This document shows positions 1 to 8,796 of a stretch of 8,796 bases of DNA, piece by piece; the first letter of the stretch is position 1, and each line of letters starts with the position of its first letter. The stretch is from the IMG/VR virus record IMGVR_UViG_2693429555_000008, one strand, 5' to 3'. The notes below the pieces were generated by a model. The model was not told the origin of the DNA. It saw only the letters and a list, made by a program, of their open reading frames with translations, and searched no databases. Made by a program: the position numbers and the translations under genes. Origin of the DNA: a virus (lineage: Duplodnaviria; Heunggongvirae; Uroviricota; Caudoviricetes).

Positions 1-302
1 GCGTATGGTCAACCTGACAACCCGGTGTCCTCAACGGGGGAAGGAATAACCCCGCCATACTTACCGCCGCGCCATTTCGCGGATTGCCACAACCGGAAGC
101 GCACGGTCGACGAAAATTTAACGACAGGCTATCTATGAACCAGCTACCTCGCCGTGCGCTTTCGCGTTATGGTCTGACTTTTCAGGGAAATATCCTTTCA
201 GTAAACTGTCAATGCCGGATGCTCACCCGTGTCCGGCGCACGCATTCCACCTCACCCGTGGAGAACTCCTTAATTACTAACCTTAGCTTTGTTGATTAGC
301 TA

Positions 303-521
303 CTAACGCGGGTATGTAATCATTCTGGCAATGCTTAATGCCGCTGCTTTTTCCAGATTGGTGATATCCTGCTCCAGAGCGGACAGATTTTCAGCCTGCT
401 TAGCTCTGGCTTCATTGGCCCATTTCAGATCCTGCGCTGCATTAATTTTCTGGTGCATCCACTCATAAAGTTCATCATCGGTATAGTCTGGCGCGATGAT
501 GACGGGTTCTCGTTTCTGCAT
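303..521 (-). CDS. ydfC: Small prophage early-left protein, 72 aa (YdfC-like)
   Basis: ORF MQKREPVIIAPDYTDDELYEWMHQ...ARMITYPR; ATG at 521..519 with GAGGA Shine-Dalgarno about 5 nt upstream (532..528); last of three co-directional small genes downstream of the repressor. Size and order match ydfA(51)-ydfB(42)-ydfC(72) of the E. coli Qin dicB operon as I recall it; symbol assigned by synteny and size, not by search. Confidence 0.55.
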   Translation of the reverse strand: MQKREPVIIAPDYTDDELYEWMHQKINAAQDLKWANEARAKQAENLSALEQDITNLEKAAALSIARMITYPR

Positions 522-550
522 ACTGATTCCTCGCGGTGCTGTTTCGCTTA

Positions 551-679
551 TCAGCCGTTAGATTTTGCCGAACTGGAAAGCGCCTGTTTAAATTCGTTGA
601 AGCTGAGAGCTTCTTCGCCTTCGGCAAGACCTTCGAAGTATTCTTCGTAAGCCTTTTCCATGATTGTGTCGAAATCCAT
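551..679 (-). CDS. ydfB: Small prophage protein, 42 aa (YdfB/YdaG-like), acidic
   Basis: ORF MDFDTIMEKAYEEYFEGLAEGEEALSFNEFKQALSSSAKSNG, too short to appear in the supplied ORF track. ATG at 679..677 lies one nt after the TGA (683..681) of the upstream gene, with AGGTGA Shine-Dalgarno inside that gene, suggesting translational coupling. Confidence 0.5.
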   Translation of the reverse strand: MDFDTIMEKAYEEYFEGLAEGEEALSFNEFKQALSSSAKSNG

Positions 680-680
680 A

Positions 681-836
681 TCACTCACCTGAGTTTCTTT
701 CCAGCCAGCGACGGGCACCATTTTCGGTTTTAAACGTTTTGCTTTTGGTATACGTCATCGCGGTGAACGTACCGTCCTGGTTGGGAAACACGCCGTACAC
801 CAGAGATTCGTTGTTGCCAAGATCGATAGTATCCAT
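681..836 (-). CDS. ydfA: Small prophage protein, 51 aa (DUF1391-like, YdfA/YdaF-like)
   Basis: Internal Met of track ORF 681..917; MDTIDLGNNESLVYGVFPNQDGTFTAMTYTKSKTFKTENGARRWLERNSGE. GAGG Shine-Dalgarno 5-8 nt upstream of ATG 836..834; the upstream in-frame extension has no ribosome-binding site. First gene of the leftward early operon. Confidence 0.6.
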   Translation of the reverse strand: MDTIDLGNNESLVYGVFPNQDGTFTAMTYTKSKTFKTENGARRWLERNSGE

Positions 837-1020
837 GTTGACCTCATTTCCCCTTAACGCCGGGGTAGCGGAACAAAAACCTGCTGCATAGTTATTAAAG
901 TTGAACCCTGCCGTCATGTTCTTACGCCTCGGGCTGGCTACTTAACCCCTGACCACTGCCTGGTAACTCGAAGTATTGCCCTGCATTCTGTGGGGTGGGG
1001 TGGGTTGGTATGAAAGGAAG

Positions 1021-1060
1021 GATACCCATGGGTATCCAAAAAGTAAATACCCATGGGTAA
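1021..1060. promoter_or_regulatory. OL-like operator pair: two copies of the 12-bp palindrome TACCCATGGGTA (1023..1034 and 1048..1059), centres 25 bp apart
   Basis: Perfect palindromes read directly; the first extends to the 16-bp GATACCCATGGGTATC. They sit between the repressor 3' end and the leftward small-gene operon and overlap a candidate leftward promoter (-35 TTTACT / -10 TATCCT on the minus strand). A T6 run at 1061..1066 follows the second copy on the plus strand, with a U-rich stretch after it on the minus strand, so a terminator role for the repressor transcript is also possible. Confidence 0.45.
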
Positions 1061-1101
1061 TTTTTTGATGTGTCTTAACTGGTGACTGGTTGTTTGGTGA
1101 G

Positions 1102-1521
1102 TTATGATGCGTTTTGTGCTTTCTTTTTACGGATTTCTTCGTAGATCATATTGTAATACTGTTTTTTCTCTTCAAGAGTTTTTAATAAGTTATCCGCTTC
1201 ACTTTCTGGCAGTTCGTCTAAGAGATCTAAAAAAATACGTTGTCGTGGCGTTAGAACCCTTGTTTCATAATTGGAGGCTGTGTTCGTTGATGATGAAACG
1301 ATACCATCCATCCATCCCCGGGGTAACCCAAAGGACTCTTCTATAATCTCCACCATATCATCAGCGATCCGTTTTTTTCCTTTTTTCCCCTCTGGGTACA
1401 ACATTCTTGATACATAAGAAGGCTCGCGACCGATCTTTCTGGCCACGTTAACCGCTTTACCATCGCATTTCTCATCACGAATTTTGATGAGTTGTTGTCG
1501 TCTAAATTCATATTTGTCCAT
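1102..1521 (-). CDS. Prophage repressor, XRE-type HTH, DicA/RacR-like, no peptidase domain (139 aa from first ATG)
   Basis: Track ORF 1102..1563 begins at a TTG; the first ATG is at 1521..1519 (MDKYEFRRQQLIKIRDEKCDGKAVNVARKIGREPSYVSRMLY...). HTH segment GKAVNVARKIGREPSYVSRM. C-terminal LTPRQRIFLDLLDELPESEADNLL resembles the DicA C-terminus as I recall it. Divergent from a Cro-like gene. No Shine-Dalgarno before the ATG and a TATTAT -10 (1533..1528) 6 nt upstream suggest a leaderless transcript. Confidence 0.75.
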   Translation of the reverse strand: MDKYEFRRQQLIKIRDEKCDGKAVNVARKIGREPSYVSRMLYPEGKKGKKRIADDMVEIIEESFGLPRGWMDGIVSSSTNTASNYETRVLTPRQRIFLDLLDELPESEADNLLKTLEEKKQYYNMIYEEIRKKKAQNAS

Positions 1522-1556
1522 AGGTAAATAATAGATGCGATTACCGCAAGGTAAAC

Positions 1557-1596
1557 AACCCAAGGGTATTGACTTTTGTTTACCTGTGGGTATTCT
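1557..1596 (+). promoter_or_regulatory. OR-like region: rightward promoter (-35 TTGACT 1569..1574, -10 TATTCT 1591..1596) overlapped by two operator half-palindromes (AACCCAAGGGTA 1557..1568; TACCTGTGGGTA 1581..1592)
   Basis: Hexamers with a 16-bp spacer, AAGGAG Shine-Dalgarno at 1611..1616 and ATG at 1622. Both sites match the TACCCATGGGTA palindrome at 10 of 12 positions and are 24 bp apart centre to centre, mirroring the OL-like pair. Confidence 0.45.
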
Positions 1597-1621
1597 TTGC
1601 TGTGTTTACTAAGGAGTAGCT

Positions 1622-1903
1622 ATGGAAGAATTAAGAATATTTCTCAATTCTCTTTCGTCAGATGAACAGCGTATGTTTGCATGTGAGTGTGGTACTAGCA
1701 TCGGTTATCTAAGAAAGGCATTGAGTAAAGGTCAAATGTTAGGGGCATCGTTATGTGTCCTTATTGAGCGAGCCAGTAATGGTGAAGTTACACGTCAGCA
1801 ACTAAGGCCTTTTGATTGGATGAATATTTGGCCCGAGCTGGAAGATACCAAAACGTTAACACAACCACTTACTAGGAGCTTGATTCATGAAAATCAAGCA
1901 TGA
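1622..1903 (+). CDS. ydaS: Cro-like HTH regulator, YdaS family (93 aa)
   Basis: First rightward gene, divergent from the repressor, with a strong AAGGAG Shine-Dalgarno. The C-terminal segment LIERASNGEVTRQQLRPFDW matches the E-R-A-x-x-G-x-V-x-R-x-x-L-R-P-x-x-W signature I associate with YdaS/Cro-like phage regulators. Its 3' end overlaps the next gene by 17 nt. Confidence 0.65.
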   Translation: MEELRIFLNSLSSDEQRMFACECGTSIGYLRKALSKGQMLGASLCVLIERASNGEVTRQQLRPFDWMNIWPELEDTKTLTQPLTRSLIHENQA

Positions 1904-2312
1904 ACACATCCGCATGGCGATGAATGCCTGGGCGCGTCCTGATGGCGAAAAAGTTCCAGCAGCTGGAATAACCCAGGCTTATTTTGAGTTGGGTATGACG
2001 TTTCCTGAACTGTATGACGACAGCCATCCGGAAGCCCTGGCTCGCAATACCCAGAAAATTTTCCGCTGGGTAGAGAAAGACACCCCTGATGCAGTTGAAA
2101 AAATTCAGGCGTTGTTACCAGCGATCGAAAAGGCAATGCCACCTTTGCTGGTGGCCAGAATGCGCAGCCACAGTTCAGCTTATTTTCGGGAGTTGGTGGA
2201 GACGCGGGAGCGACTGGTGAGAGACGCTGATGATTTTGTCGCAGTGGCAATCGCCGGTTTCAATCAGATGAACCGTGGTGGCCCGGCAGGAAATGCTGTG
2301 GCAGTACATTGA
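1887..2312 (+). CDS. ydaT: YdaT-like protein (CII-position regulator/toxin family), 141 aa
   Basis: ORF MKIKHEHIRMAMNAWARPDGEK...; AGGAG Shine-Dalgarno at 1873..1877. It sits immediately after the Cro-like gene, as in the racR-ydaS-ydaT module of the Rac prophage; the N-terminus and length (~140 aa) fit my recollection of YdaT. Confidence 0.65.
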   Translation: MKIKHEHIRMAMNAWARPDGEKVPAAGITQAYFELGMTFPELYDDSHPEALARNTQKIFRWVEKDTPDAVEKIQALLPAIEKAMPPLLVARMRSHSSAYFRELVETRERLVRDADDFVAVAIAGFNQMNRGGPAGNAVAVH

Positions 2313-2383
2313 CTGACAATAGCCATATCGAATCGCTTCCGGCAATTCGTGAGTAAAAAGATTCGGTATCAGAAGAGGTGAGT

Positions 2384-2542
2384 ATGGCTAACGCCTGGCT
2401 CAGATTATGGCATGACATGCCAAATGACCCTAAGTGGCGAACAATTGCCAGGGTGTCAGGGCAGCCAATTGCAACAGTGATGGCAGTGTATATCCACGCT
2501 CCTGGTGAGCGCGTCACGAAATGTCACGCGAGGTCACATTGA
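2384..2542 (+). CDS. Replication initiator, N-terminal fragment (52 aa ORF ending inside iteron array 1)
   Basis: ATG 2384 with GAGGTG Shine-Dalgarno; MANAWLRLWHDMPNDPKWRTIARVSGQPIATVMAVYIHAPGERVTKCHARSH, stop TGA 2540..2542. The N-terminus resembles prophage replication proteins, and the gene sits where O would be in a lambda-like early-right operon. Confidence 0.5.
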   Translation: MANAWLRLWHDMPNDPKWRTIARVSGQPIATVMAVYIHAPGERVTKCHARSH

Positions 2543-3455
2543 TGTCACGACAGAAGATTTGGCAAGTGCGCTCGACGTGACAGAAGAGGTAATTGATTCA
2601 ATTTTGCAGACGATGCAGGGGCGGGTACTTGATGGTGATTTAATCACTGGATGGGAAAAACGCCAGGTGCTTAAAGAGGACAACGGCAATATTTCGCAAA
2701 CCGCAAAATCTCCGGCAGAGCGCAAGAGGGCGCAGCGTGAGAGGGAAAGAAAGCGGGAACAAAATGGCGATTGTCACGGCGCGTCACGAAATGTCACGCA
2801 CATGTCACGACGAGTCACGACAGATAAAGATACAGATAGAGATACAGATAAAGAAGATCAAAACACTATGGTCCATGGCGTAAAAAACGCCACGAACCAT
2901 GTAGGGGATGTTCAGACCGTCACTCCTGGCCAGCCCGCAGGCACGACACCGGAAGCCGATTCAGCGTATGCGCTGAAAGCCGATTCGGGCGCTGTGCAGC
3001 AGGCGATGACCGCTGGGCCGGAGCAATCACACCAACTGCAGCAGCCTGAAGCCGATTCCGCCATTCAGCGGGAAGCCGATCGGGTAGTCCCGGAAAACAC
3101 CGGGCAGCCTGTGGGACGAGTGGATTATCCGGATGTGTTCGAACAGGTCTGGCGGGAATACCCGTTACGAGCCGGGGCAAACCCGAAGAAATCCGCTTTC
3201 AGTGCCTGGAAGGCCAGATTACGCGAGGGGGTGCCACCAGAGGCCATGCTGGATGGTGTAAGGCGTTACACAAGATACCTGGCTGCTACCGGGAAAACGG
3301 GAACGGAATTTGTTCAGCGAGCGACGACGTTTTTTGGACCGGACCGGAATTTTGAAAACCCCTGGTTGCTCCCGGTAAGCGGCACGAACAACCAGCGTTG
3401 TGTTAATCATATTTCTGAACCGGACACCGAAATTCCGCCGGGATTCAGAGGGTAA
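2505..3455 (+). CDS. Replication initiator, main ORF in the +1 frame (316 codons; GTG at 2505, no Shine-Dalgarno of its own)
   Basis: Long ORF with no ATG or ribosome-binding site; its frame opens at 2481 and overlaps the N-terminal ORF over 2481..2542, so both are most simply one gene interrupted by a +1 frame change. It contains both iteron arrays and a low-complexity basic/acidic linker (KRAQRERERKREQ; TDKDTDRDTDKED). Confidence 0.6.
   Translation: MSASRNVTRGHIDVTTEDLASALDVTEEVIDSILQTMQGRVLDGDLITGWEKRQVLKEDNGNISQTAKSPAERKRAQRERERKREQNGDCHGASRNVTHMSRRVTTDKDTDRDTDKEDQNTMVHGVKNATNHVGDVQTVTPGQPAGTTPEADSAYALKADSGAVQQAMTAGPEQSHQLQQPEADSAIQREADRVVPENTGQPVGRVDYPDVFEQVWREYPLRAGANPKKSAFSAWKARLREGVPPEAMLDGVRRYTRYLAATGKTGTEFVQRATTFFGPDRNFENPWLLPVSGTNNQRCVNHISEPDTEIPPGFRG
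2509..2549. repeat. Iteron array 1: four GTCAC(G/A) motifs starting at 2513, 2523, 2533 and 2544 (10-11 bp phasing)
   Basis: Read directly. The 21-bp block GCGCGTCACGAAATGTCACGC (2509..2529) recurs at 2779..2799. Confidence 0.6.
2771..2855. repeat. Iteron array 2 (putative ori core): five GTCACG motifs at 2773, 2783, 2793, 2804 and 2814, followed by three 12-bp repeats ACAGATA(A/G)AGA(T/A) at 2820..2855
   Basis: Read directly; helical-turn phasing of short direct repeats next to an A-rich repeat block, inside the initiator gene, as for the lambda origin within O. Confidence 0.6.
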
Positions 3456-3492
3456 CAGATTTCAGGTCATGGGGTAATTTTCAGGAGGGCTT

Positions 3493-3768
3493 GTGGCAAA
3501 AGTTTTTACTCCCGAACTGCGGGAAGAAGTGAAGGCGCGCATTGTGGAACTGGTACGCAGAGATGGGCGAAAAACGCGTAAACAACTGGAAAATGAAACC
3601 GGGGCGACGAGACACCTGATAGAAGTTCTGGTGAAAGAGCTGGTAGTTAGTGGCGCAGTATATGGTTCAGGACATGGAATATTTCCTTCGGAGCAGGCTC
3701 GTAAGGACTGGGGAAAAGCCCGCAAAAAAAATGTCGAGAGCGGCAGTGAAAAAGAAGAGCGACCCTGA
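3493..3768 (+). CDS. Hypothetical small basic protein with winged-helix-like segment (91 aa)
   Basis: GTG 3493 preceded by a strong AGGAGG Shine-Dalgarno (3483..3488), 37 nt after the initiator stop. RKTRKQLENETGATRHLIEVLVKELVVSG looks HTH-like. An A8 run (3724..3731) lies near the 3' end where an overlapping +1 ORF continues to 3901. Confidence 0.5.
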   Translation: MAKVFTPELREEVKARIVELVRRDGRKTRKQLENETGATRHLIEVLVKELVVSGAVYGSGHGIFPSEQARKDWGKARKKNVESGSEKEERP

Positions 3769-4045
3769 CCTGATTTATTCATTGCTAGATGGCGAAATAC
3801 GCCGTTACAACAGACGACAGAATATAATTTGTCGCGAGTGTCGTCAGAGCGAAGTTATGCAGCGCATACTGGAATTTTATCAGGGAAATGTTCGGTATTA
3901 ATTGAAGTGACGAAATTAAAGAGCATTAGTTCAGATATTAATTGACACTTCGATGGCACAGGCCCAGACCTAGTCTGGTTGTCAGCTTTGAGCTAGGTGA
4001 ACGTTGGTATCGTTAGTTTGTATTAATCAACGGAGAATAGGCCAA

Positions 4046-4076
4046 ATGACTTTTCTTTGCCTCTTTTAATTATAAT
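4046..4076 (+). promoter_or_regulatory. Candidate promoter for the 932-aa gene (-10 TATAAT 4071..4076; weak -35 ATGACT 4046..4051, 19-bp spacer)
   Basis: Good -10 hexamer in a ~240-bp AT-rich intergenic region; the -35 is poor, so placement is tentative. AAGGA Shine-Dalgarno at 4132..4136 before ATG 4145. Confidence 0.25.
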
Positions 4077-4144
4077 TCAAGTTCAATTGATTACATTGAA
4101 GTACTAATGTGAGTCCGTCAAACAAATAGCTCAAGGAATAGGTC

Positions 4145-6943
4145 ATGTGGGGAAGTGAAAACAAACAAAATCTGGACGTACTGGATCCTGTGCAGTTGGT
4201 GCGTATCGAAGCGGTACACCGGGGGTTCCTTTACCAGCATCTTTACGCTGTAGGCTGCTTACTTTTGGCGCAGAGGGCAGCTATGGACTCAGTAACTGTC
4301 GAGCTTGATGAGGATATTGAGCTGAAATCCAAACAGGAACGTCTCTACATTCAGGTTAAAACCCGTTCAAAACCTATTATGCCCAACGATGTGTCGGGGG
4401 CTCTGGAGCGATTTGTAAAGCTCAGAAATGAGCATACTTCGGCAAACCGCGAAGGGGTGGCTTCTTTTGTGATTATTGTAAACCAGGCGCCTGGACCGCT
4501 GCTTCAGAAGATGATTGACGATAAAAAGCTTCCTTCTGATGTTCTTATTGTCTGGCCCCAGTCGACAGCTGGACGTCACCCGGCACTTCCGCCCGCATGG
4601 AGTACTCTGGCTGATGCGGCCACATGGTGTATCGCAGAAGCAGAAAAGCTGAAATTTTCACTATTGTCCCCAGAATCCTTGATTTGGAAGTTAGCAGGAT
4701 TGGTTCAGCTTGCCGCCACCGGAGGCGATACCAATGGACAACATACGTTTTTCACGGAAGAACTTACTGAACTATTTGAACAGTTGATCGTTCAGCTACA
4801 GGACTTTCCTGCACCACCAGCACTGTACCGCCCACAGAACGAAGAACCTTCTCTCACATCTGGTGAGCGGATCCGTATCCTTTGTGGACTCTCAGGTGCA
4901 GGCAAGACAGCTTGGGCCGCACAGGCCGCATTACACTCCACTGCACTTTGTGCTTATTACGACACCGGTGATCTTCCCGGTCCAGCTCTGGCCAGTACGC
5001 TGGTGCGCGAGATGGCTGCTAGATTTACAGCCCGTGACCAAGACGGTTTGCGCAGGATTTTGCTCCCCGGTGCCAGTGGTTTTGAGGCTCTTAGGAGTTT
5101 TGATACCTACCTGAAAGAGCAGGGTACCACCTTGGTGCTGGTTCTGGATAACGCCCATCGTGTACCTGCGGAAAATCTACTGGATGTTCTGAATGCAACT
5201 ACACATATTCGTTTTGTGCTGTTGTGCCAGCCTCACGAAAACGTTCGCGAACTGGAGGTCATGACGGGGCTACAGCGCGAGGGCCTGCAGGGATGGAATC
5301 TCGATACGGTAGCTGTCGTTGTAAACGATATCGGAGGATTTGCCACCGCTATGGGATACGAGCAGCTACGGGCTTACACTGGTGGTCTTCCCCTGTATGT
5401 AGAGAGCGCCGCAAAAATCGCCGTTTCTGATTATGAGCGTAATGTCGATGCTCTGTGTGCTGAACTCCAGCAACAAACCCATACTGCGGAAACCGCCCAA
5501 GAAATTATTCTGTCACGTGTATTTCAGGGATTTGAATCACTACTTCAGAGCGCGCTGGCATTGTTCAGTCTCTCTGACGTAGGGCTGAGTCGCGAAGAGA
5601 TTTCTACGCTCCTAATCAATTCGCTGAACATTTCACCAAGCAGTGCTGCTTCTTTAATTAGGAAAATGCGCGCTACTGGCACTATTGAAATTTATGGAAA
5701 CCAGACCCTGAAGGTACATGATGCTGTCAGGGGGCTAGGACTGCAACATCTGGAACTGATGGATCAGGGTATATCGAACAAAGCGCTACTAGCGCTGAAA
5801 GACCTTTTAGTTGAAAGTCTTCATAATACCCGCAATACAAAACGGTTATCGTTGTTGACTCAACTTTATATTAAGCTCAATGATGTCACGACGTTGATCG
5901 AACTCTCAGGCCAAGAAATGTTTTATGAGATGGGCGTGACGGTCGACATTCTTGCAAGCTTGGAGCGTGCTGCAACATCGGACTTATTGGGACCTGTTCA
6001 TAAATTCTGGGCATTGGATGGCCTTGTTTTCGTTGAGCTTAAAGACGGAATATCCGACCACATTGCTCAGAGGTTAAACATCATGGGAGCTTTACTTGCG
6101 GAGCACAAGTTCGGCTATCAAGAAGAGATGGCCTATGCAATGAAACGAATGTTATTTTCGGCAGAAAGCAATGATGCACGAGAAGTTCAAAAGCTGGCAC
6201 AGGAAGTCCGCCCCCAACTCCCAGATGAAGAACATAAACGCATCTTTGACTACAACCATGCCATTGCACTCTGGAGATTAAAAAAACTCAAGGATGCTGA
6301 AACATTAAGCTGTAATGTTATACAAGGGTACTATTCTTTATTTGGTATCACACCTGCTGATGTCATAGGAAAAAACGCCGACGCATTATGGAAAACTATT
6401 AATCATTCCGAAAATATGCAGGAACACTTTAAACATATGGCTGATGCTCTGGAGTTGCTGGCCAGAATTCGTGATGCGCAGGGAAAACTGTCACCATTAC
6501 TGCGTATTCATTCGATGAAGTTCTACAATCTGGCCATGGCCCCGGAATCCATGGTCAGGGTGGGCCAAGATCTGGCGGATGAGTTTGTTGCCATAAAGGA
6601 TTACGACGGTGCCAAGGAAGTCATGGAGCAACATGTCCTGCCGGTTGTCAATGAGGCAGGTCTAGTACATCGACTGATTCAGGTTCGAAGCCAATACGCA
6701 GTCATATTAGCACTATCGGGTCAGCATAAAGCAGCTGATGTCGAAATGCAGCGCCTTGCTCCCTATATCGAAGGCCTCACAGGTGTACAGCGTCAAGAAA
6801 TCCAAAATCAATCAAATTACATCGTACAGCTTGCCCATAAAGCAGCAAAGACTAAATTAACTGAAGTTTTTGGTGCGGTCGGCCGGAATGAACAATGCCC
6901 CTGTGGCTCGGGAATAAAGTACAAAAAATGTCACGGTGCCTGA
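4145..6943 (+). CDS. STAND/NB-ARC-like P-loop NTPase, 932 aa, with nuclease-like N-terminal domain, helical C-terminal region and terminal SEC-C zinc motif; candidate anti-phage defence protein
   Basis: Uninterrupted 2.8-kb ORF with its own Shine-Dalgarno. Walker A GLSGAGKT (4886..4909); Walker B-like LVLVLDNAH (5132..5158); HIRFVLLCQPHE resembling an NB-ARC RNBS-B/TTR motif; GGLPLYV resembling the GLPL motif (5381..5398); C-terminal CPCGSGIKYKKCHG (6896..6937) matching the SEC-C metal-binding motif. N-terminal GFLYQHLY and D/E-rich strand followed by QVK are compatible with a PD-(D/E)xK fold. GC content looks lower than in the flanking phage genes. Confidence 0.9.
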   Translation: MWGSENKQNLDVLDPVQLVRIEAVHRGFLYQHLYAVGCLLLAQRAAMDSVTVELDEDIELKSKQERLYIQVKTRSKPIMPNDVSGALERFVKLRNEHTSANREGVASFVIIVNQAPGPLLQKMIDDKKLPSDVLIVWPQSTAGRHPALPPAWSTLADAATWCIAEAEKLKFSLLSPESLIWKLAGLVQLAATGGDTNGQHTFFTEELTELFEQLIVQLQDFPAPPALYRPQNEEPSLTSGERIRILCGLSGAGKTAWAAQAALHSTALCAYYDTGDLPGPALASTLVREMAARFTARDQDGLRRILLPGASGFEALRSFDTYLKEQGTTLVLVLDNAHRVPAENLLDVLNATTHIRFVLLCQPHENVRELEVMTGLQREGLQGWNLDTVAVVVNDIGGFATAMGYEQLRAYTGGLPLYVESAAKIAVSDYERNVDALCAELQQQTHTAETAQEIILSRVFQGFESLLQSALALFSLSDVGLSREEISTLLINSLNISPSSAASLIRKMRATGTIEIYGNQTLKVHDAVRGLGLQHLELMDQGISNKALLALKDLLVESLHNTRNTKRLSLLTQLYIKLNDVTTLIELSGQEMFYEMGVTVDILASLERAATSDLLGPVHKFWALDGLVFVELKDGISDHIAQRLNIMGALLAEHKFGYQEEMAYAMKRMLFSAESNDAREVQKLAQEVRPQLPDEEHKRIFDYNHAIALWRLKKLKDAETLSCNVIQGYYSLFGITPADVIGKNADALWKTINHSENMQEHFKHMADALELLARIRDAQGKLSPLLRIHSMKFYNLAMAPESMVRVGQDLADEFVAIKDYDGAKEVMEQHVLPVVNEAGLVHRLIQVRSQYAVILALSGQHKAADVEMQRLAPYIEGLTGVQRQEIQNQSNYIVQLAHKAAKTKLTEVFGAVGRNEQCPCGSGIKYKKCHGA

Positions 6944-7016
6944 GTCTTTGTACGACCATGCGGGCCTTATTGTCTTGCTATTGCTCTTATGGTTCGCCTT
7001 TCTGATTGATTTCATA

Positions 7017-7045
7017 TTGGCGAGGTGACGGGAGTTAAGTAGAAT
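7017..7045 (+). promoter_or_regulatory. Candidate hok/mok mRNA promoter (-35 TTGGCG 7017..7022, -10 TAGAAT 7040..7045)
   Basis: 17-bp spacer. The predicted start near 7052 would give a ~110-nt leader and a ~420-nt transcript ending at the terminator 7445..7471, the size expected for hok-family mRNAs. Confidence 0.35.
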
Positions 7046-7098
7046 GGCTGCGGGTGCTTGAGGCTATCTGTCTCAGGCATGAACACCAAAGGCAGATA

Positions 7099-7172
7099 GA
7101 GAAAAGCCCCAGTTAACATTACGCGTCCTGCAAGACGCTTAACATTAATCTGAGGCTCAATCTATGAACGGC
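7099..7172 (-). ncRNA. sok: Candidate Sok-like antisense RNA
   Basis: Minus-strand promoter -35 TTGCCT (rc of 7202..7207) and -10 TAACCT (rc of 7179..7184), 17-bp spacer, start near 7172. The transcript would be complementary to the mok Shine-Dalgarno and start codon (7152..7166), contain hairpin GCGTC-CTGCAA-GACGC (7123..7138) and end in a U-rich tract (rc of 7099..7105). Boundaries are approximate. Confidence 0.35.
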
Positions 7173-7376
7173 AAATCTAGGTTAGCCTCTTACGTGCCGA
7201 AAGGCAAGGAGAAGCAGGCTATGAAGCAGCAAAAGGCGATGTTAATCGTCCTGATCGTCATCTGTTTAACCGTCATAGTGACGGCACTGGTAACGAGGAA
7301 AGACCTCTGCGAGGTACGAATCCGAACCGGCCAGACGGAGGTCGCTGTCTTCACAGCTTACGAACCTGAGGAGTAA
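7164..7376 (+). CDS. mok: Mok-like reading frame (70 aa), an in-frame N-terminal extension of hok
   Basis: ATG 7164 with GAGG Shine-Dalgarno 8 nt upstream; in frame with hok and sharing its stop, as I recall for chromosomal mokC/hokC. Its start region is the predicted Sok target. Confidence 0.5.
   Translation: MNGKSRLASYVPKGKEKQAMKQQKAMLIVLIVICLTVIVTALVTRKDLCEVRIRTGQTEVAVFTAYEPEE
7221..7376 (+). CDS. hok: Hok/Gef-family type I toxin (51 aa membrane peptide), HokD/RelF-like
   Basis: Translation MKQQKAMLIVLIVICLTVIVTALVTRKDLCEVRIRTGQTEVAVFTAYEPEE is nearly identical to the E. coli HokD/RelF sequence as I recall it; hydrophobic transmembrane helix followed by the conserved RKDLCEV...GQTEVAVF core. 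Confidence 0.9.
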   Translation: MKQQKAMLIVLIVICLTVIVTALVTRKDLCEVRIRTGQTEVAVFTAYEPEE

Positions 7377-7444
7377 GAGATCAGGCGGGGGAGAAATCCC
7401 TCGCCACCTCTGATGTGTCAGGCATCCTCAATGCACCCGCACTT

Positions 7445-7471
7445 AACCCGCTTCGGCGGGTTTTGTTTTTT
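7445..7471 (+). terminator. Intrinsic terminator of the hok transcript
   Basis: Stem AACCCGC (7445..7451), loop TTCG, stem GCGGGTT (7456..7462), then TTTTGTTTTTT to 7471. Confidence 0.7.
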
Positions 7472-7543
7472 CCTGGCATTCTGGTTTACAATTCGCACGC
7501 CAGCCTGAACAACTGGCACCTGCTGCGCCAGCAGAGACAACCG

Positions 7544-7822
7544 ATGGCGCACGATACCAAATTACACAATTCTAATGATTCTGCTGTCTTTGCCAGCAGG
7601 TGCGGACGGCGTTTTCACGCATTCACATCAGACTGGTTCCAGCATCCTCCATGCACTGAAGAGCAGGCTGAATGGATAATTCAGTGTTACCGCAGGCGTG
7701 GATACGAGGTTAAGAAAGCTCTTAGTCTCGACTATCGTCACTGGATAATCTCAGTCAGACTCCCTTACTCCGAACGCCCACCGCGTCCGTCCCGCACATT
7801 CCAGCAACGCATCTGGAGGTAA
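7544..7822 (+). CDS. Hypothetical 92-aa protein, paralog copy 1 (Cys/His/Arg/Trp-rich; Rem-like position after hok)
   Basis: Track ORF 7415..7822 contains the hok terminator, so the start is placed at ATG 7544 (MAHDTKLHNSND...WFQHPPCTEEQAEWIIQCYRRRGYEV...). Near-identical to the 8145..8423 product over the C-terminal ~65 residues. In the Qin prophage hokD is followed by rem then ydfU; assignment is by synteny only. Confidence 0.55.
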   Translation: MAHDTKLHNSNDSAVFASRCGRRFHAFTSDWFQHPPCTEEQAEWIIQCYRRRGYEVKKALSLDYRHWIISVRLPYSERPPRPSRTFQQRIWR

Positions 7823-8039
7823 CGTGCGGGTATTACTTCGACCTGTTCTGGTACCGGAACTCGGGCTGGTGATCGTTAAGCCGGGCCGTGAATCCATGCC
7901 GGTATTCCACAATACCCGGGTACTGGTGGAGCCGGAACCGAAAAGCATGCGTAATCTGCCGTCCGGGGTCGTTCCTGCCGTTCGCCAGCCGCTGGTGGAA
8001 GACAAAACATTGCTGCCGTTTTTCAGTAACGCACGGGTA
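7616..8039. repeat. Tandem direct repeat, unit A (424 bp, ~95% identical to unit B)
   Basis: Base-by-base comparison with 8217..8640, offset exactly 601 bp, with a handful of substitutions. Confidence 0.85.
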
Positions 8040-8078
8040 GGAATAAAAGCAGGCTTTTCAGCTTTTGCAGAAGAATAA
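7824..8078 (+). pseudogene. Truncated copy of the downstream Cys/His-rich gene (DUF968/YdfU-like?), 84 codons
   Basis: GTG 7824 two nt after the upstream stop, with GGAGG Shine-Dalgarno. The first ~72 codons (MRVLLRPVLVPELG...FFSNARV) are near-identical to the 8425 gene; the sequence then diverges at 8040 and terminates (…GIKAGFSAFAEE), at the end of duplicated unit A. Confidence 0.5.
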
Positions 8079-8144
8079 ACTCATCTACAATCTTGCGCGG
8101 GGCTGAACTCCCGCTGAGTAACACCGTGCCACCGGAGAAAACCG

Positions 8145-8423
8145 ATGGCACGCAACGTAAAATATTACAATTCTGATAATTCGCCCGTTCTTGCCTGCAC
8201 GCACGAGCGGTATTCTCACGCATTCAAGTCTGAATGGTTCCAGCACCCTCCATGCACTGAAGAGCAGGCGGAATGGATAATTCAGTGTTACCGCAGGCGC
8301 GGATACGAGGTTAAGAAAGCTCTTAGTCTCGACTACCGTCACTGGATAATCTCAGTCAGATTGCCTAACTCCGAACGCCCACCGCGTCCGTCCCGTACAT
8401 TCCAGCAACGCATCTGGAGGTAA
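8145..8423 (+). CDS. Hypothetical 92-aa protein, paralog copy 2
   Basis: ATG 8145 with GGAGA Shine-Dalgarno (8134..8138); MARNVKYYNSDNSPVLACTHERYSHAFKSEWFQHPPCTEEQ.... The N-terminal ~25 residues differ from copy 1; the rest is near-identical. Confidence 0.6.
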   Translation: MARNVKYYNSDNSPVLACTHERYSHAFKSEWFQHPPCTEEQAEWIIQCYRRRGYEVKKALSLDYRHWIISVRLPNSERPPRPSRTFQQRIWR

Positions 8424-8640
8424 CGTGCGGGTATTACTTCGACCTGTTCTGGTACCGGAACTCGGGATGGTGGTCGTTAAGCCGGGCCGTGAATCCATGC
8501 CGGTATTCCACAATACCCGGGTACTGGTGGAGCCGGAACCGAAAAGCATGCGTAATCTGCCGTCCGGGGTCGTTCCTGCCGTTCGCCAGCCGCTGGTGGA
8601 AGACAAAACATTGCTGCCGTTTTTCAGTAACGCACGGGTA
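8217..8640. repeat. Tandem direct repeat, unit B
   Basis: See unit A. Confidence 0.85.
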
Positions 8641-8796
8641 ATTCGTGCTGCTGGTGGTGCTGGTGCATTGTCTGACTGGCTGTTGTGCCATATTAAATCC
8701 TGCCAGTGGCCACACGGCGATTATCATCACAGCGAAACCGTCATTCACCGTTATGGTACCGGCGCAATGGTGTTGTGCTGGCACTGCGACAACCAG
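8425..8796 (+). CDS. Cys/His-rich phage protein, 5' part (DUF968/YdfU-like?), continues beyond the window
   Basis: GTG 8425 translationally coupled to the upstream gene (GGAGG 8416..8420); open to the window end (124 codons). ...IRAAGGAGALSDWLLCHIKSCQWPHGDYHHSETVIHRYGTGAMVLCWHCDNQ contains C/H clusters suggesting a metal-binding domain. Confidence 0.6.
   Translation, partial: MRVLLRPVLVPELGMVVVKPGRESMPVFHNTRVLVEPEPKSMRNLPSGVVPAVRQPLVEDKTLLPFFSNARVIRAAGGAGALSDWLLCHIKSCQWPHGDYHHSETVIHRYGTGAMVLCWHCDNQ

Follow-up and report, generated by a model that had tools for sequence, protein, structure and literature searches.

The window analysed here, an 8,796-nucleotide stretch of the IMG/VR virus record IMGVR_UViG_2693429555_000008, corresponds to the early region of an Escherichia coli prophage of lambdoid (Rac/Qin-like) type, and its positions 1-8038 match NZ_CP148579.1 at 99.8%. 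A single open reading frame (ORF) of 932 codons lies on the plus strand (4145..6943, stop codon counted in the coordinates), flanked by the replication module (replisome organiser, DUF977) and by a hokD/sok toxin-antitoxin locus; it matches the coding sequence of WP_000264572.1 in NZ_CP148579.1 at 100% of its nucleotides. RefSeq labels the product only as a "SEC-C metal-binding domain-containing protein", and "AAA family ATPase" is the other public name under which this protein, present in identical form on 383 public contigs, is found; both names obscure the nature of a widespread gene. An initial annotation of the window, made from the raw sequence, had singled out the interval 4880-5400 as the motif series of an NB-ARC/STAND ATPase, and had taken this to suggest signal-dependent oligomerisation of the kind used by Avs and NLR-like phage sensors. 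The whole of that interval lies inside the 932-codon ORF, and the NLR-like switch was correctly recognised from the letters alone.

Gene and domain architecture

The ORF list and the comparisons described below divide the protein into a predicted nuclease, a STAND nucleoside triphosphatase (NTPase), a TPR sensor and a SEC-C tail, all encoded on the plus strand. The predicted effector is an N-terminal Cap4-type PD-(D/E)xK double-stranded DNA nuclease domain (residues ~15-215; 4187..4789), for which the Pfam match lies above its cut-off. Conservation was assessed here and below in 93 full-length representatives of 50%-identity clusters, whose median identity to the query is ~30-45% per domain. 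In the nuclease core E53-x-D55-E-D57-x-E59 ... Q70-V-K72 (4301..4360), D57 and K72 are found in all 93 of these diverged representatives, D55 and Q70 in 92, and E53 and E59 in 91; judged by its residues, the predicted catalytic core is intact.

The nuclease is followed by the three subdomains of the STAND module, namely a nucleotide-binding domain (NBD; residues ~240-384; 4862..5296), a helical domain (HD1/ARC1) that carries the GLPL motif (~385-445; 5297..5479) and a winged-helix domain (WHD; ~446-540; 5480..5764). The predicted sensor is a C-terminal, all-helical, TPR-like solenoid (~541-909; 5765..6871), a region that matches TPR folds. The protein ends in a SEC-C zinc-binding motif, CPCGSGIKYKKCH (914-931; 6884..6937; Pfam SEC-C, 8e-10), which in a PDB sequence search matches two peptides from the C-terminus of SecA (1sx0 and 1ozb; E 3e-5 to 5e-5) and which occurs in 63 of the 93 representatives, or about two-thirds of the family. 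The last ~20 residues have a low predicted local distance difference test (pLDDT) score in the structure model, and the tail is presumably flexible. Three small ORFs that overlap the flagged interval (4863..5114 on the plus strand, 4931..5158 on the minus strand and 5224..5430 on the plus strand) were rejected as by-products of the long one.

Motif series and conservation

The four motifs on which the initial annotation relied are real, all lie in one frame of the 932-codon ORF and have the coordinates given there; the interval drawn around them holds for the motif positions, and only its end, at 5400, has to be corrected, since it trims one base off GGLPLYV. The Walker A motif or P-loop, GLSGAGKT (residues 248-255; 4886..4909), has G251, G253 and K254 in all 93 representatives and a threonine or serine at position 255 in just as many. 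The Walker B motif, LVLVLDNAH (330-338; 5132..5158), is of the "DN" variant, with D335 in 93/93 and N336 in 88/93 (D in the other five). In the β4 strand, RFVLLCQPHE (356-365; 5210..5239), Q362 is retained by 77 representatives, with histidine in 8 and arginine in 7, and P363 by 88, while the GLPL or GxP motif, GGLPLYV (413-419; 5381..5401), shows P416 in 93/93, L417 in 89/93 and G414 in 85/93. A fifth, putative STAND hallmark, absent from the initial annotation, is an MHD-like "VHD" in the winged helix, K-V-H525-D526-A-V-R529 (5711..5731), which starts the last helix of the WHD and sits after the wing hairpin in the model. H525 is present in 92 of the 93 sequences, position 526 is aspartate in 84 and glutamate in 9 (D/E 93/93), and R529 is kept in 75. 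On the strength of its position and of established knowledge, we take this histidine to be the equivalent of the plant MHD and Apaf-1 LHD histidine.

A chance origin of the motif series was rejected. When the protein was shuffled 200,000 times, a Walker A motif arose in 3,440 of the shuffled sequences, and the combination of Walker A, hhhhD[DEN] and G-h-P-h at the observed spacing in 0. That spacing (81 residues from the Walker A lysine to the Walker B aspartate, 27 from there to Q362 and 54 from Q362 to the proline of GLPL) is the one seen in the NB-ARC of the tobacco N protein (79/30/55) and in a rice NLR (74/28/58), and an hhhhDN Walker B also occurs in 6 of 10 NB-ARC-type seed sequences. 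The STAND NTPase superfamily, which reportedly goes back to Leipe, Koonin and Aravind in 2004, has a P-loop NBD with GxxxxGK[ST] and hhhhD, present here as GLSGAGKT and LVLVLD335, and a GxP (GLPL) motif in the helical domain, present here as G414-L-P416-L417 and aligned with GLPLA of the NB-ARC seeds.

Profile and structure comparisons

The claim that the NTPase is of NB-ARC/STAND type, rather than of ABC or AAA+ type, is supported at three levels, by the structure model, by profile-profile comparison and by a profile match in the PDB. The profile-profile comparison that the initial annotation had called for, made with hhalign, gave a probability of 94.1% against 10 NB-ARC-type seeds (nine of them matching Pfam NB-ARC), with Walker A, Walker B, the Q362 strand and GLPL in register, and of 86.8% against NACHT-type seeds, in an alignment that does not include the GLPL region. 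The controls, an ABC ATPase and a UvrD helicase, scored 6.8% and 0.8%. A further comparison, with one Salmonella Cap4-STAND seed that has a similar "TQP" strand, gave 6%; as the profile of this seed consisted of just one sequence, the value is uninformative. In the alignments FVLLCQ is paired with IIITTR/ILxTSR, which places Q362 at the sensor-1 position, that of the RNBS-B "TTR" arginine; from the alignment, the putative sensor-1 glutamine is a variant feature and no ground for exclusion from the STAND superfamily.

Searched against PDB sequences, a diverse profile of the family reached PH0952, a STAND protein with TPRs, at E 4.3e-5 and across the whole module; the single protein, or a profile of its close homologues, retrieved only SecA tails, and a STAND protein was reached by the diverse profile alone. 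The initial annotation had named as its own refutation a result in which the best profiles were unrelated P-loop families and NB-ARC scores were poor. The outcome was divided: hhalign favours NB-ARC, while the best Pfam P-loop matches of the query are the generic AAA_22 (1.2e-7; 32.6 bits against a cut-off of 27) and AAA_16 (4e-4), with no match to NB-ARC. Membership of the STAND superfamily is supported by fold and profile, and the NTPase is not a member of Pfam NB-ARC.

The AlphaFold2 model of residues 225-545 (pLDDT 85) has a five-stranded NBD, a helical bundle carrying GLPL and a winged helix with a β-hairpin wing. The winged-helix subdomain that the initial annotation proposed to look for is therefore present in the model, as part of a three-part NBD, helical and winged-helix module distinct from the NBD plus lid of AAA+ proteins. 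Compared with solved structures, the module model scores highest with plant NRC2 in its resting state (18.8, with 288 of 321 residues aligned), followed by MalT (18.7), the STAND-TPR protein PH0952 (17.0), ADP-bound Apaf-1 (16.1) and the NB-ARC of NRC1 (14.7). Cdc6/ORC, MuB and TnsC score at most 12.8, with about 185 residues aligned, and the NACHT proteins NOD2 and NLRP3 reach 10.4 and 9.9. The AAA+ proteins form a second tier and do not provide the best structural match, and we regard the structural evidence, taken from the predicted model, as decisive for STAND over AAA+. The highest-scoring structures are in closed, inactive states, so what the model shows is the resting conformation; as modelled, then, the module has a STAND fold in a closed, resting-state-like form. 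A Foldseek search with the full model returned SeAvs3 as the best match (1.3e-12), PH0952 next (3.6e-12) and then two plant resistosome NLRs.

Comparison with known systems

Lee et al. (Nature, 2026) list 656 curated STAND "seed" NTPase domains in their Supplementary Table 1, in which seed #193 is WP_021564393.1 from Escherichia, with an NTPase at residues 227-435, limits that correspond to the region flagged in the window. WP_021564393.1 is identical to the window protein at 928 of 932 positions (99.6%) and its gene, in NZ_CP135653.1, occupies the same slot of the prophage, with DUF977 and hokD on either side, so that the STAND identity of the gene has already been published and the 932-residue protein is already known as a catalogued defence-type STAND. 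The substitutions from the window protein to the seed are N9H, Q139R, L346R and N433S; at position 346, in the helix after Walker B, the window protein has a leucine (codon 5180-5182, "ENLLDVL") where the seed and the family consensus have arginine ("NLRD"). A literature search found neither WP_000264572.1 nor WP_021564393.1 named in the text of a paper.

Avs (antiviral STAND) sensors, in a usage said to stem from Gao in 2020 and 2022 and followed by Lee et al. (2026), unite a recognised defence effector, a STAND NTPase and a C-terminal repeat sensor in one polypeptide, and the window protein does so with its Cap4, STAND and TPR regions. It is also associated with defence islands and mobile elements, as described below, and is represented through seed #193 in a published census of defence-related STANDs (Lee et al., 2026). 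A close comparison is with SeAvs3 (PDB 8DGC) and SeAvs7, which have the same three-part order with an N-terminal Cap4-type nuclease (in SeAvs7 the Cap4 domain likewise spans about residues 2-225) and in which ATP-bound tetramerisation assembles the nuclease; ATP-driven tetramerisation and Cap4-mediated DNA cleavage are reported for both in the same study (Lee et al., 2026). SeAvs3, however, has 2028 residues against 932 in the window protein, and PDB sequence searches with the window protein or its profiles returned no match to any solved Avs chain.

The NB-ARC modules of plant NLRs (NRC2, 8RFH; NRC1, 6S2P) and of Apaf-1 (1Z6T) share the order and spacing of the motifs, the GLPL motif and, judged by position, a histidine of MHD type with the window protein, at 12-14% identity. 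They differ from it in having arginine rather than glutamine at sensor-1 and DD rather than DN in Walker B, and the window protein has a nuclease for an effector and a TPR sensor instead of LRR or WD40 repeats. PH0952 (6MFV), an archaeal protein, is the only solved STAND protein reached by a sequence profile; in PH0952 and in MalT (8BOB), as in the window protein, a TPR-type sensor directly follows the winged helix. Unlike the window protein, both lack a nuclease effector: MalT activates transcription and carries a LuxR DNA-binding domain, and the entry description of PH0952 assigns it no effector.

Family, distribution and genomic setting

Homologues of the same ~932-residue layout number more than 900, in gamma- and betaproteobacteria. 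A HMMER profile of the module, run against 1.84 billion representatives, delineates a family with sharp limits and about 300 clusters at 50% identity: it gave 301 matches at E<=1e-3, of which 263 lie at or below 1e-10, and the best 150 of the 301 include no bridge to other STAND families. In E. coli the gene is present in 16 of 5,426 complete genomes, and in all three that were inspected it occupies the same slot between DUF977 and hokD, despite differing immunity regions. Ten IMG/VR viral contigs carry the gene and 54 plasmids carry homologues. Megablast found no match among sequenced phages, and tblastn yielded no more than two faecal phage contigs, both without annotation, at 34-39% identity.

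The immunity regions themselves were compared between the window (1102-2312) and a second prophage with the same STAND gene (locus L008, 1777-3170). The window has an ORF for a 153-residue repressor-like protein (1102..1563, minus strand), a YdaS-like gene and a YdaT-like gene; the other prophage has an HTH repressor of another length and a Cro/CI gene. Such differences link the STAND gene to the replication/nin module and not to one immunity type.

Defence genes recur beside the homologues in a sample of seven contexts, which is a description rather than a statistical test of enrichment. Gabija (GajA/GajB) adjoins the homologue in Vibrio cholerae and Yersinia, and AbiH adjoins it in Pseudomonas and Alteromonas; DruA and HNH genes lie near the Variovorax homologue, and PIN genes, toxin-antitoxin genes and Tn7 cargo are also among the neighbours. 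The neighbours vary in orientation, so the gene behaves as a unit of its own that moves along with other defence genes. In V. cholerae, Pseudomonas and Alteromonas the AbiH-family gene (PF14253) is adjacent or two genes away, and its orientation differs (L002, 2465-3424; L003, 10860-11762; L011, 9822-10781; L012, 3061-4020), and the E. coli prophage copy has neither AbiH nor Gabija as a neighbour. The proximity of AbiH and Gabija may reflect co-travel in islands rather than a functional pair.

Two copies of the gene are disrupted or stretched. In the E. coli sequence NZ_OZ546984.1 it is broken by the IS3-family element ISEc52, and on one IMG/VR contig (L021, 6001-10049) the match to the gene extends over 4,049 nt, consistent with a similar insertion. 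This suggests that the gene is occasionally inactivated by insertion.

Proposed mechanism and alternative explanations

We consider it likely that the flagged region encodes the nucleotide-binding oligomerisation module (NBD, helical domain and winged helix) of a single-polypeptide, NLR-like immune sensor of Avs type, which a lambdoid prophage of E. coli carries as a moron. The mechanism that we propose is modelled on the solved Avs3, Avs4 and Avs7 proteins and on NLRs. In the lysogen, the protein would rest as an ADP-bound, autoinhibited monomer in which the nuclease is sequestered and H525 of the winged helix clamps the nucleotide. Binding of a conserved protein of a superinfecting phage by the TPR sensor would then open the module, and ADP would be exchanged for ATP, upon which the NBDs would oligomerise, probably into a tetramer. 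The Cap4 domains thus brought together would become an active double-stranded DNA nuclease that cuts phage and host DNA indiscriminately, and the resulting abortive infection would protect both the lysogen population and the prophage. The Walker B "DN", with its invariant aspartate, and the glutamine in place of the sensor-1 arginine point to slow or absent ATP hydrolysis. This suggests that the protein would act as a binding and exchange switch rather than as a motor, with hydrolysis weak or absent. If the proposal is correct, the gene would be one more single-gene abortive-infection sensor by which temperate phages exclude competitors.

Several observations weigh against this interpretation. 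Signal-dependent oligomerisation, anti-phage activity, the trigger and nuclease activity are all proposed here by analogy with the behaviour of the family, and the literature yielded no experiment on the 932-residue protein. The nucleotide cycle may differ from that of textbook NLRs, given that the sensor-1 arginine of STAND proteins is replaced by Q362 and that Walker B is devoid of its second acidic residue. Pfam NB-ARC (PF00931) and NACHT (PF05729) have no match in the query at E<=1 and in none of 52 diverse relatives at E<=0.01, although the same models detect 9 of the 10 NB-ARC-type and 7 of 7 NACHT-type seeds used as positive controls. In PADLOC, only the N-terminus of the nuclease (LmuA, DUF4297, HamA) and SEC-C fragments are matched, with no hit to an Avs, Dsr1 or bNACHT model; by PADLOC, the protein is therefore not one of Avs1-5, and, taken with the lack of sequence matches to solved Avs chains, this suggests a separate family from SeAvs3 and SeAvs7. 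The SEC-C tail, moreover, has no counterpart in the characterised Avs proteins. The sensor (median identity to the query 0.30) is not clearly more variable than the WHD (0.29) or HD1 (0.31), and a fast-evolving recognition surface is hence not evident. Finally, a promoter and terminator scan found nothing convincing for the gene, and no sigma-70 consensus promoter upstream of it. Two further databases recovered little beyond the tail, with only SEC-C-type tails and a weak DUF4297 match in NCBIfam and the SEC-C tail alone in PHROGs.

The SEC-C tail is central to a rival explanation, in which the protein is still a STAND nuclease, and guards a host factor or senses the state of the cell instead of binding a phage protein directly: for instance, the tail could bind SecB or the ribosome, whose perturbation by phage the TPR region could monitor. 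We hold this to be unlikely. The tail is conserved in most of the representatives and is closely similar to a peptide of SecA that was crystallised together with SecB (1ozb_I, E 5e-5), and host factors are part of other bacterial NLR-like sensors, as with EF-Tu in SeAvs7 and DnaJ in bNACHT25. Yet about one third of the family is without SEC-C, which is thus not essential to the core mechanism, and SEC-C motifs terminate many unrelated bacterial proteins, as the NCBIfam and PADLOC matches indicate. The published survey can be read both ways: four of its Avs families have defence activity and yet no phage-encoded activator, whereas most Avs families of known trigger bind phage proteins directly (Lee et al., 2026). 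The narrower idea that the tail is a docking peptide, which would recruit a host factor such as SecB or the ribosome as a co-sensor, guardee or assembly cofactor, has in our estimation only an outside chance of being right. Both are known to bind the tail of SecA, to which the SEC-C tail is nearly identical. No paper linking SEC-C with anti-phage STANDs was found in the literature. Were docking to prove true, an NLR-like phage sensor would be tied to the protein-export or translation machinery. We see the tail as the sole loose end with real upside; the trigger, hydrolysis and the role of the tail leave the classification of the protein unchanged.

Two other explanations were weighed. An ATPase of AAA+, ORC-Cdc6 or TniB-MuB type, which is the sense of the Pfam AAA_22 label, would make the protein a restriction-like nuclease-NTPase acting on DNA, with no ligand-triggered switch of NLR type. 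This we judge highly improbable. AAA_22 is the best Pfam P-loop match of the query and is matched by 48 of the 52 relatives, but it does not discriminate: AAA_22 and AAA_16 also match 7 and 9 of the 10 genuine NB-ARC seeds, respectively, and are therefore no argument for AAA+ or against STAND. The GLPL motif, the MHD-like motif and the winged helix are STAND features and near-invariant, and the one PDB match to the module at the sequence level, PH0952, is a STAND protein. That the protein is instead a regulatory STAND in the manner of MalT, serving housekeeping or the regulation of the prophage and not immunity, would surprise us more still. A DNA-binding output domain is absent, the output domain being a Cap4-type nuclease with a conserved catalytic core; the neighbours of the homologues are Gabija, AbiH, Druantia and toxin-antitoxin genes; and the census lists it as a defence-related STAND seed (Lee et al., 2026). 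We thus retain the Avs-type sensor as the preferred reading of the locus.

Neighbouring features of the window

Directly downstream of the STAND gene is the hokD/sok type I toxin-antitoxin locus (7052-7376), made up of the sok RNA (7052-7226; Rfam match, 110 bits) and the hokD coding sequence (7221..7376). Upstream, the DUF977 gene (3493-3901) is split into two frames that overlap, 3493..3768 and 3650..3901. The annotation of the matching genome treats it as a frameshifted pseudogene, but two other prophages with the STAND gene have it intact. The AT-rich intergenic region of 243 nt between DUF977 and the STAND gene contains a perfect TATAAT hexamer at 4071-4076, ~70 nt upstream of the ATG, which the consensus scan did not call a promoter because no -35 hexamer lies at a spacing of 16-18 nt.

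Towards the end of the window there is a direct repeat of 300 nt (7527-7826 and 8128-8427; 86% identical, 601 nt apart), which represents a second, diverged copy of an ORF of 92 residues (8145..8423) together with the start of the DUF968 gene; the first copy of DUF968 (7824..8078) ends after 84 codons. Only one copy of the repeat is present in the reference prophage, whose match to the window falls from 99.8% over 1-8038 to 93.3% over 8128-8796. The duplication at 7527-8427 has the look of a scar left by recombination between two variants of a lambdoid prophage.

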